Assembly (NCBI GenBank): GCA_963665285.1
Contig: OY762266.1
Coordinates: 1,632,001 to 1,696,000, forward strand
DNA length: 64,000 bases
Reading direction: 5' to 3'
DNA from: Candidatus Poribacteria bacterium
Lineage (GTDB): Bacteria; Poribacteria; WGA-4E; PCPOR2b
Shown here: positions 39,850 to 40,965 of the stretch, one piece after another
How positions within the stretch are numbered: position 1 is the first letter of the stretch
Layout: every line of letters begins with the position of its first letter
The notes under the pieces: model-generated
What the model saw: the letters and a program-made list of their open reading frames with translations, nothing else
What the model was told of the DNA's origin: nothing
The model's database searches: none
Position numbers and translations under genes: made by a program

Positions 39850-40965
39850 TTAGTCCCACACCTTTCTAGCAGTATCAACAACCATCGATAGTTTACGCTT
39901 CTGATCTTCCCCCGTAATGCGATTGCCAACAACTGAAGTTGAAAAGCCACACTGCGGACTCAATGCTAGCCGTTCTAGCGGCACAAATTGGCTAGCTTCC
40001 TTGATACGCACGGCAAGCACCTCCGACGTTTCTCGGTGCGGCGTTTTCGTCGTGACCAACCCTAAAACAGCAACCTTGTCGTCGGGAATCTCCCTCAACG
40101 GTTCAAATGAACCGGAGCGTTCATCATCGTATTCGAGCAGCAGACGCTGGGCACGGATACCACGAAAAATCGGTTTAGCAATCAGATCATAACCTCCTTC
40201 GACCAACCACCGGCTGCCCTGATTGCCGCGTCAGAGGTGAAAGCCAAAGGTAACCTCTGGAAAACCGCCTATCACAGCGTTATCCATCACAATGCCTCGG
40301 TCCAACCACTGATCAAGCGTCCAACCCTGCTCTTCGTAGAAGCCCCTAGTCTTGGGATCGAGCATCAACGGATAATGGGGAGCATCGAGTTGAATGTAGG
40401 TTGCACCCAGCCGAACCAACTCCGCGACCTCGTCCCGCATAATGTCAACGACATCCGCCAGAAAACTGTCGAGCGTGGGATAGGCGGGCGAAGAGTATTC
40501 TGACGACCAGAAATTTGTCCACAAGCTGGGACTGGGCAACGTAATCTTCGGTATACGACTCGTCCGCGCTCGCAGATAGGTGAACTCCTCCACTGACAGG
40601 TGACGCTTGCGAGTGAGTTGGCTGACCACACCCAAGTTTTTGGGGCGTTCTAGACTTAGGTCCCCTACGCCTTCATCCCCGTGCCAATCACCCCAAAGGA
40701 ACGCATTGAGGTCATATTCACCGAAACCGGCGACCGCTTCTGTCATCTGACTCTGGAAGGATAACCGGCGCATCTCCCCATCCGTAACAACATCCAAGCC
40801 CACCGCTTCCTGAAGTGCAACAGCTTCATCAACCGCTTGATCCTCAATGGCTTTGAACACCGCCTGTGTTATTCTGCCCGCAGCAAACCCACTTCTCGCC
40901 TTGAGAAGTTCAGGCGGACGGAGCAGACTTCCAACGACATCGGTATGCGCAGCAATCATGGGCAT
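39850..40965 (-). CDS. Cobalamin-independent methionine synthase II (MetE catalytic domain)-like protein, predicted selenoprotein (U245, 371 aa)
   Basis: Two ORF-track pieces are in the same frame and separated only by TGA 40231-33, giving H-L-U-R-G-N where the family has HLCRGN. Other motifs intact: VGSLLRP, TDGEMRR, YIQLDAP, LEYD, LSPQCGF. Confidence 0.85.
40178..40226 (-). promoter_or_regulatory. SECIS-like structure of the MetE-like gene
   Basis: mRNA CAGCC-GGU-GGUUG hairpin with the loop 19 nt after the UGA, inside a perfect 8-bp stem GCAAUCAG/CUGAUUGC. Confidence 0.55.

Follow-up and report, generated by a model that had tools for sequence, protein, structure and literature searches.

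A stretch of 64,000 nucleotides from Candidatus Poribacteria bacterium (contig OY762266.1 of assembly GCA_963665285.1, positions 1,632,001 to 1,696,000), called the window below, was analysed around a 'core' gene that resembles the catalytic domain of the cobalamin-independent methionine synthase MetE. This MetE-like gene lies at 39850–40965 on the minus strand. In translation, it forms one frame of 371 codons with a single internal stop, a TGA at 40231–40233 in the context ...EVTFGFHL-U-RGNQGSRWLVEGG..., U denoting the predicted selenocysteine (Sec). The frame closes with a TAA at 39850–39852 and contains no frameshifts. Under genetic code table 11, it is split into two open reading frames (ORFs) at 40231–40965 (244 aa) and 39850–40206 (118 aa). 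A preliminary description of this DNA had taken the two ORFs for one frame that is broken only at the Cys of an H-x-C motif, with the other ligand motifs intact, and had proposed a selenoprotein. Both observations were confirmed, and the proposal gained support from the conservation of the TGA, the Sec machinery of the genome and equal selection upstream and downstream of the codon. The Met at codon 3 is conserved in an alignment of relatives, codons 1 and 2 are not, and N-terminal pieces in databases are 242 aa long. Therefore, translation probably starts at the ATG at 40959–40961 (MIAAH...), which would give a native protein of 369 aa with Sec as residue 243. Residue numbers follow the 371-codon frame unless they are stated to count from this likely start.

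The translated frame matched Pfam PF01717, the MetE catalytic domain, over residues 8–345 with 58.5 bits (cut-off 21, E 9e-16). On the canonical MetE model TIGR01371, it reached 44.7 bits against a cut-off of 930 and matched profile positions 428–601 alone. The N-terminal folate-binding domain is absent, the protein having 371 aa compared with about 750 aa in canonical MetE. The nearest solved structure is PDB 1YPX, a 'putative vitamin-B12 independent methionine synthase family protein' from Listeria (E 1e-48, and 9e-67 with a family profile). Full-length MetE proteins were distant, and so was MesD (3RPD) with 32 bits for the single sequence and 53 bits for the profile. An AlphaFold model calculated from a 27-sequence alignment (predicted local distance difference test, pLDDT, 90.2; predicted template modelling score, pTM, 0.91) is a (β/α)8 barrel, in which strands 239–244, 274–278 and 333–337 end at or just before H243/U245, E278 and C339. 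In a Foldseek comparison, the model reached a template modelling (TM) score of 0.86 on the target 1YPX and a TMq of 0.73–0.76 to the zinc- or homocysteine-bound MetE barrels of T. maritima, C. albicans and N. crassa.

The predicted Sec codon (U245; U243 from the likely start) occupies the alignment column of the Cys in the H-x-C zinc motif. The first predicted zinc ligand by alignment is His243 of the H-L-U triplet (codon 40237–40239). It is followed by Glu278 in LLLEYDD (40132–40134), a predicted ligand that is invariant in 27 of 27 aligned family members, and by Cys339 in SPQCGF (39949–39951), a predicted ligand whose alignment partner in MetE structures is the C-terminal zinc Cys motif. G12-S13, D62-G63-E64, D194-A195-P196, H243-L244-C245, L277-E278-Y279-D280-D281 and P337-Q338-C339-G340 are invariant in the same 27-sequence alignment. 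According to the available part of PMC7857596, E. coli MetE binds zinc through H641, C643, E665 and C726 and homocysteine through S433, E484 and D599. Motif alignments to C. albicans MetE (GS, GE, DxP and final CG) map the invariant residues of the family onto zinc and homocysteine roles. We infer the equivalence of the H-x-C motif with that of MetE from 1YPX and from motif spacing, the distance from Glu to the last Cys being 61 residues in both.

Relatives were collected by a six-frame search of 60 related genomes. Orthologues with 78–89% protein identity occur in each of the 19 other species of this genus as well as in three more genera of the same family, while the other 38 relative genomes contain paralogues only, with at most 37% identity and without stops. 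TGA stands at the identical alignment column in 23 of 23 orthologues from four genera, over a synonymous divergence (dS) of 0.4–2.6. A species-wide scan with one genome per species added to this, and 80 loci were fetched. The codon at the column is TGA in 22 loci, TGC in 45 and TGT in 13, i.e. Cys in 58. Seven TGA loci lie outside Poribacteria, namely, in Chloroflexota (L066, Anaerolineae; L076, Caldilineaceae; L077, Anaerolineales; L102, another Chloroflexota), Nitrospinota (L098), Methylomirabilota (L103) and one unclassified bacterium (L109). Recurrence of the TGA in independent genomes, which the preliminary description had named as a check, thus extends to 23 Poribacteria species and seven other lineages, and the close homologues do not all carry Cys. 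The Cys-form orthologues are 61–79% identical and bear the NCBI name 'cobalamin-independent methionine synthase II family protein'. Among full-length database homologues, Cys was found at the column in 120 of the 120 listed. A quick maximum-likelihood (ML) tree with 73 rows implied at least six changes of the Sec/Cys state, at least three of them forced by well-supported branches; the tree omitted 5 of the 15 named Poribacteria rows, and its trait column was a gap in the Sec rows.

Selection was compared on both sides of the TGA with 22 gap-free orthologues (231 pairs, Nei-Gojobori method NG86), L049 having been dropped for an indel. The median ratio of nonsynonymous to synonymous substitutions (dN/dS) was 0.101 upstream and 0.100 downstream, at a dS of 0.68 and 0.59, respectively, and selection is therefore not relaxed in the downstream half. 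A base-call error was checked as well: DNA contigs from runs of two studies match the stretch without any difference, though either study may be the source of the assembly. One of the 23 orthologues, from genome G005 of the same genus (L035/L063, OZ242315.1), has a second in-frame TGA at about codon 131 and reads FIYL-U-ART instead of FTYLRART, with Arg at this position elsewhere. Decay of this copy through a nonsense mutation, a fault of the assembly and recoding at a second site are all conceivable causes. That the TGA at 40231–40233 is itself a nonsense mutation or base-call error, which turned TGC or TGT into TGA in a dead gene, has in its favour the distance of a single base to both Cys codons, the splitting or truncation of the gene by gene callers and the second TGA of the G005 relative, but is hardly credible given the identical TGA in all orthologues and seven distant lineages, a downstream dN/dS of 0.10 at a dS of about 0.6, the lack of frameshifts and the identical contigs of two studies.

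Databases contain the gene in a truncated form. With the 244-aa N-terminal part as query, 120 clusters were listed, of which 114 were new, and 110 of these 114 end exactly at the residue before the Sec column. The length is 242 aa in 103 of the new clusters, and one record at NCBI goes under the name 'hypothetical protein [Candidatus Poribacteria bacterium]'. The truncated MetE-like protein is thus represented by at least 110 database clusters. Mis-calling by annotation pipelines had been anticipated, in the form of a pseudogene call; what the databases carry is the 242-aa truncation. As an alternative to read-through, translation might end at the TGA and a C-terminal chain of 118 aa be made from the TTG at 40206, both chains assembling into one barrel. 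The ORF 39850–40206 of table 11 begins 25 nt after the TGA, and split MetE proteins are described in the available part of PMC7857596. However, the break invariably coincides with the Cys codon itself and never leaves the frame, and the eight codons from TGA to TTG (RGNQGSRW) encode a conserved peptide that is identical to that of the Cys forms. One zinc ligand would be lost altogether, and the TGA form is confined to genomes with selA. A split enzyme is therefore very improbable.

The presence of a Sec machinery was searched in the genome. SelA (602 bits), selB (366 bits), tRNA-Sec (76.6 bits) and a Sec-type selD (372 bits) were each found above cut-off, which settled a further point that the preliminary description had raised. 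SelA, selB and tRNA-Sec are consecutive at 1.11 Mb of the chromosome, which measures 6.26 Mb; no tRNA was found within the window. The Sec-type selD, encoding selenophosphate synthetase, had been noticed about 1.5 kb away and is located at 37323–38384 on the minus strand, 1466 nt downstream of the MetE-like gene. It has a Sec codon of its own (TGA 38322–38324) and is the sole selD of the genome. SelA was above cut-off in 7 of 7 TGA-form genomes outside Poribacteria compared with 9 of 15 sampled Cys-form genomes. TGA still stops neighbouring genes, as those at 42092 and 38718 lengthen under read-through. Insertion of a standard amino acid (Trp, Cys or Gly) at the UGA, by suppression or a changed code, would be another way to a full-length protein, and read-through alone would account for the conservation and for the selection downstream. 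It is disfavoured by the termination of neighbouring genes at TGA, by the Cys in 58 of 80 homologues, a classic Sec/Cys pairing, by the complete Sec machinery here together with selA in all seven other TGA genomes and by the TGA at the known Sec site of the selD in the window. This alternative, too, was judged to be very unlikely.

A hairpin that resembles a selenocysteine insertion sequence (SECIS) follows the TGA at 40201–40219 on the minus strand. Counted with the U of UGA as 0, CAGCC-GGU-GGUUG occupies +17 to +29 (40204–40216), with a CAGCC/GGUUG stem and a GGU loop that starts 19 nt after the UGA. The stem is extended by a G-U pair (G15-U31) and a G-C pair (G14-C32) across a G.G mismatch. 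An outer 8-bp helix (GCAAUCAG/CUGAUUGC) at +7 to +14 and +48 to +55 (40178–40226, minus strand) surrounds the hairpin and is perfect here. The preliminary description had reported this GGU loop inside a perfect 8-bp stem. The structure exists as described, but the GGU hairpin proved to be weaker evidence for Sec than thought, being spelled by conserved S-R-W-L codons and shared with many Cys forms. The outer helix is perfect in 14 of 30 Sec forms, every one of which belongs to this genus, and is not a general feature. Within the hairpin (+14 to +32), 97.5% of cells were paired in 29 distinct Sec-form sequences, and 5 of 7 pairs vary on one side only. A G or U as the middle base of the loop is common to 22 of 22 Sec forms but limited to 15 of 56 Cys forms (8 of 8 and 15 of 56 when counted by lineage, Fisher p 1e-4). 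The Arg codon in the loop is CGG or CGU in 22 of 22 Sec forms, giving a GGU or GUU loop, and CGC in 38 of 56 Cys forms. The folding energy of the 60 nt after the codon did not separate the forms, with medians of -18.9 kcal/mol for Sec and -22.9 kcal/mol for Cys. The UGA of selD is followed by a hairpin of similar place and shape (CAGUCC-AGUU-GGACUG at +14 to +29).

Some results weigh against the recoding of the UGA or fail to add to it. Compensatory double changes were found in 0 of the 7 hairpin pairs, and 129 of 500 shuffles reached the observed covariation score. Full pairing of the hairpin is shared by 22 of 22 Sec forms and 34 of 56 Cys forms. Because of this pairing and because the codons of S-R-W-L largely dictate it, the hairpin alone cannot separate Sec from a stop. 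A search of the whole window with Rfam at the gathering threshold gave no match and hence no curated SECIS or other RNA family. The second TGA in the G005 orthologue, for which decay is one of the explanations given above, belongs here as well. Transcription is weakly indicated at most: contigs from an RNA library (a sponge metatranscriptome), which are 85–95% alike and represent relatives, covered 27 of 30 bins, the TGA being bridged by two contigs, but the library may contain DNA, and contig depth is uninformative on expression. No difference at 40231–40233 was seen among the 40 difference rows listed, beyond which there are 116 more.

On balance, conservation, Sec/Cys pairing, selection, Sec machinery and the function of TGA as a stop elsewhere leave, in practice, no room for a lesion, a sequencing error or a reassigned codon. 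We are confident that the TGA at 40231–40233 represents a genuine, conserved, recoded UGA, and it is highly probable, if slightly less so, that both ORFs belong to a single gene whose full-length product carries Sec at a predicted zinc-ligand position. The hairpin is plausibly a minimal SECIS that largely pre-existed in the Cys forms. Being pre-formed there (loci L064–L129), it may explain repeated switches from Cys to Sec at one site.

Next to the MetE-like gene, a conserved order was found in Poribacteria, namely, ADH, a DUF59 protein, Amidohydro_2, the Sec-form MetE-like gene, a variable segment, the Sec-form selD and a glycosyltransferase. SelD and the glycosyltransferase occur in 15 of 15 Poribacteria loci. 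The Amidohydro_2 gene directly upstream (41020–42078, minus strand) is a neighbour in 14 of these 15 loci and in 0 of 65 others. The glycosyltransferase gene (36045–37121, minus strand) is senB (TIGR04348, 402 bits, cut-off 300), which encodes the selenosugar synthase of the selenoneine pathway. The variable segment is represented here by an ORF of 319 aa at 38718–39677 on the minus strand, which has no Pfam or NCBIfam match. Its homologue was found at the same position in one of the 15 Poribacteria loci (L055), so that the spacer varies.

SenA (NF041186, 520 bits, cut-off 420) and EgtD (TIGR03438, 360 bits) adjoin each other 4.3 Mb away (C1:5951768–5954154; L130 361–2747). By these assignments, this sponge symbiont encodes the complete selenoneine pathway, its sole selD serving Sec synthesis as well as the role of senC. 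Outside Poribacteria, selenoneine-pathway genes lie within 3 kb of the MetE-like gene in 5 of 65 loci from different phyla, which makes six lineages including Poribacteria. The arrangements are EgtD-MetE(U)-SenA in L103, MetE(U)-SenA in L109, EgtD-MetE(Cys) in L099 and SelD-TauE-MetE(Cys) in L092. In L124, from a Thiohalorhabdus metagenome-assembled genome (MAG), the Cys-form gene is accompanied by an oxidoreductase-SelD fusion, SenB and SenA. This fusion (L124 4113–6533, plus strand) is a protein of 806 aa composed of a TIGR03169 pyridine-nucleotide-disulfide oxidoreductase and SelD (TIGR00476), and it overlaps the end of the Cys-form gene. SelA was not detected in the genome of this MAG; its SelD thus seems to be limited to small-molecule selenium metabolism. 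Of 22 genomes that bear the family, 7 have SenA and 4 have SenB above cut-off, compared with 0 of 14 control genomes. The link between the MetE-like family and selenoneine genes is real but partial.

The action of the MetE-like protein can be outlined by analogy with MetE. The UGA at 40231–40233 would be decoded as Sec by SelA, SelB and tRNA-Sec with the aid of the short hairpin that starts 14 nt after it, and the product would be a single-domain 'core' MetE-type enzyme of about 369 aa. Sec would replace the Cys of H-x-C and form a catalytic zinc site with His243, Glu278 and Cys339 at the C-terminal strand ends of the barrel; from alignment and fold, it is likely that Se binds the zinc. The zinc would bind and deprotonate a thiol substrate. 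This is most likely homocysteine, because the Ser, Glu and Asp that hold its amino-acid part in MetE are invariant. The zinc-bound thiolate would then accept an alkyl (methyl) group from a donor, which would not be bound in the manner of MetE because the folate-binding N-terminal domain is absent. A selenolate ligand would change the reactivity of the zinc site or its resistance to oxidation, and it could render the site more reactive or more readily re-reduced. According to the available part of PMC4360819, the zinc-site Cys of MetE and of its relative YxjG are prominent oxidation targets in bacteria. The enzyme may regenerate methionine and S-adenosylmethionine (SAM) for the three methylations that make hercynine, which would tie its role to the selenoneine pathway. 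As the most economical reading, we infer a core methionine synthase that is often recruited to this regeneration. The homocysteine methyltransferase role as such was rated as slightly better than an even guess.

Several known systems are comparable. The short proteins of the 1YPX type (YxjG/YxjH-like; PRK06520/PRK06233) share the length of ~370 aa, the single (β/α)8 barrel and the H-x-C, LEYD and PQCGF motifs, but differ from the Sec-form protein in the residue at the Cys of H-x-C and are represented by NCBIfam models that it does not reach. The C-terminal catalytic domain of MetE has PF01717, the H-x-C...E...C ligand pattern and the Ser/Glu/Asp motifs for homocysteine in common with it. In contrast to MetE, no folate-binding domain is present, so that methyl-tetrahydrofolate triglutamate would not be bound MetE-style, the distance from H-x-C to Glu is 33 residues instead of 22, and Sec takes the position of C643. 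The core methionine synthases MesA–MesD (Price et al. 2021, PMC7857596, available part) are similar as single-domain proteins of at most 386 aa with conserved zinc and homocysteine residues and a non-folate methyl donor. Yet the protein is only distantly related to MesD, a comparison that refers to similarity to 3RPD, the partner gene MesX not having been searched for. No corrinoid-protein or other partner gene is conserved beside the MetE-like gene, and Sec is found in none of these families as reported in that part of the source.

A number of findings tell against a dedicated methionine synthase tied to selenoneine. The best NCBIfam models, PRK06520 and PRK06233, scored 237 against a cut-off of 313 and 226 against 576, i.e. 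both below cut-off. In 15 of the 22 genomes that bear the family, SenA did not reach its cut-off; four of these are Chloroflexota with the Sec form. All-against-all clustering of the flanking ORFs of 80 loci revealed no conserved neighbours across phyla beyond SelD and the glycosyltransferase; ORFs were called in a crude manner, and antisense artefacts from GC-rich DNA accounted for some of the clusters. Furthermore, the genome contains four single-domain MetE-like paralogues, three of them of the Cys type, along with split MetH-like pieces; a full-length MetH or MetE is absent. The MetH-like domains (B12-binding, pterin-binding, homocysteine-binding and activation) occur as separate ORFs of 277–361 aa at C1:5112818–5121732 and C1:2996856–2997662.

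The protein might instead be a true selenoprotein that is not a methionine synthase but an accessory enzyme of selenoneine or selenium small-molecule metabolism, e.g. for Se-methylation or demethylation of selenoneine, a selenosugar or hercynine, in which Sec may act as nucleophile or redox residue and not just as zinc ligand. The location of selD, senB, senA or egtD within 3 kb in Poribacteria and in five other loci agrees with such a function, as do the distribution of SenA, above cut-off in 7 of the 22 genomes with the family but in no control, and the low scores on the methionine-synthase models. Related enzymes of the UroD/MetE superfamily have been proposed to demethylate methyl-selenium compounds (PMC10418091, available part). 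On the other hand, none of the residues with which MetE binds the amino-acid part of homocysteine varies in the family, and the majority of family-bearing genomes, including the four Chloroflexota Sec forms, have no SenA above cut-off. In its available part, the preprint on the sen cluster (10.1101/2022.04.13.486033) names only egtD and a transporter as extra genes, and the Firmicutes relatives are treated as enzymes of Met/Cys biosynthesis (YxjG, PMC4360819, available part). An accessory enzyme of this kind was considered to be unlikely, if well above the alternatives to recoding.

The sen cluster itself consists of senA, senB and senC/selD (Kayrouz et al., 10.1101/2022.04.13.486033). The MetE-like gene adjoins senB and selD here and senA, egtD or selD in five other lineages. 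It is, however, outside the three defining genes, and most family-bearing genomes are without SenA. As a tentative and bolder idea, the MetE-like protein could be a fourth player of selenoneine or selenium small-molecule metabolism, whose zinc-selenolate site would move a methyl group on or off a sulphur or selenium substrate (homocysteine, selenoneine, a selenosugar or hercynine). Part of the same tentative idea, and to be taken jointly with it, is that the hairpin encoded by S-R-W-L predisposed the Cys to repeated conversion into Sec in different phyla. Compared with this, the core methionine synthase remains the preferred reading.

Two further features of the window were recorded. At 32987–34270 on the minus strand, next to gpsA, lies a DDE transposase ORF (PF13546/PF01609) whose 427 codons stay open only under read-through of one TGA. 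It probably represents a copy of an insertion sequence (IS) that is broken or has an N-terminal extension. At 45659–49705 on the plus strand, a protein of 1348 aa is encoded with many β-propeller repeats of the YCF48/BNR type (PF14870, 13 stretches) and Sortilin-Vps10-like regions.

The absence of the protein from the classical bacterial selenoprotein families, as stated in the preliminary description, was borne out by the literature searched. Table 1 of a review from May 2026 (PMC13188914), which comprises 119 prokaryotic selenoprotein families, has no MetE-like or PF01717 entry, and the text of this review does not mention methionine synthase, MetE, PF01717 or UroD. Methionine synthase, PF01717 and homocysteine are also absent from the deep-Sep and BSepDB papers and those of their supplements that were searched, one large BSepDB file being possibly incomplete. 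A literature search that joined selenocysteine with cobalamin-independent methionine synthase, PF01717 or Poribacteria returned no description of the family, NCBIfam release 20 contains no selenoprotein model for it, and methionine synthase is unmentioned in the selenoneine literature found, the supplements of the sen preprint not being covered. Judged by its sequence, the Sec-form MetE-like protein appears to be a selenoprotein family that is new relative to the searchable literature, with a new kind of metal site.

Formate dehydrogenase (Mo/W-Se) and the [NiFeSe] hydrogenases (Ni-Se) offer a parallel for such a site. They have Sec in place of a metal-binding Cys at the catalytic site, Cys homologues that coexist and a hairpin within the ORF after the UGA. 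They differ in the metal and in the chemistry, as the metal predicted here is zinc, which is not redox-active, and the reaction would be an alkyl transfer, not a redox reaction. In Table 1 of PMC13188914, Sec is a redox residue or a ligand of the redox metals Mo, W and Ni, and none of the 119 families is a zinc enzyme. If true, a catalytic zinc that carries a selenolate in an enzyme of alkyl transfer would put selenium to a new use and would offer a natural experiment on the effect of ligand softness on the reactivity or the oxidation resistance of a zinc-thiolate.

The family is widespread, with at least four phyla and at least 110 database clusters, and it is systematically truncated by gene callers. 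Consequently, selenoproteome counts and reconstructions of the methionine pathway in these organisms, dominant sponge symbionts included, are wrong at this gene. The hairpin in Cys forms suggests a route by which a new Sec codon may arise without a SECIS having to evolve first. For selenium metabolism, the recurrent adjacency to selenoneine genes is a testable lead to a new step in selenium small-molecule metabolism.

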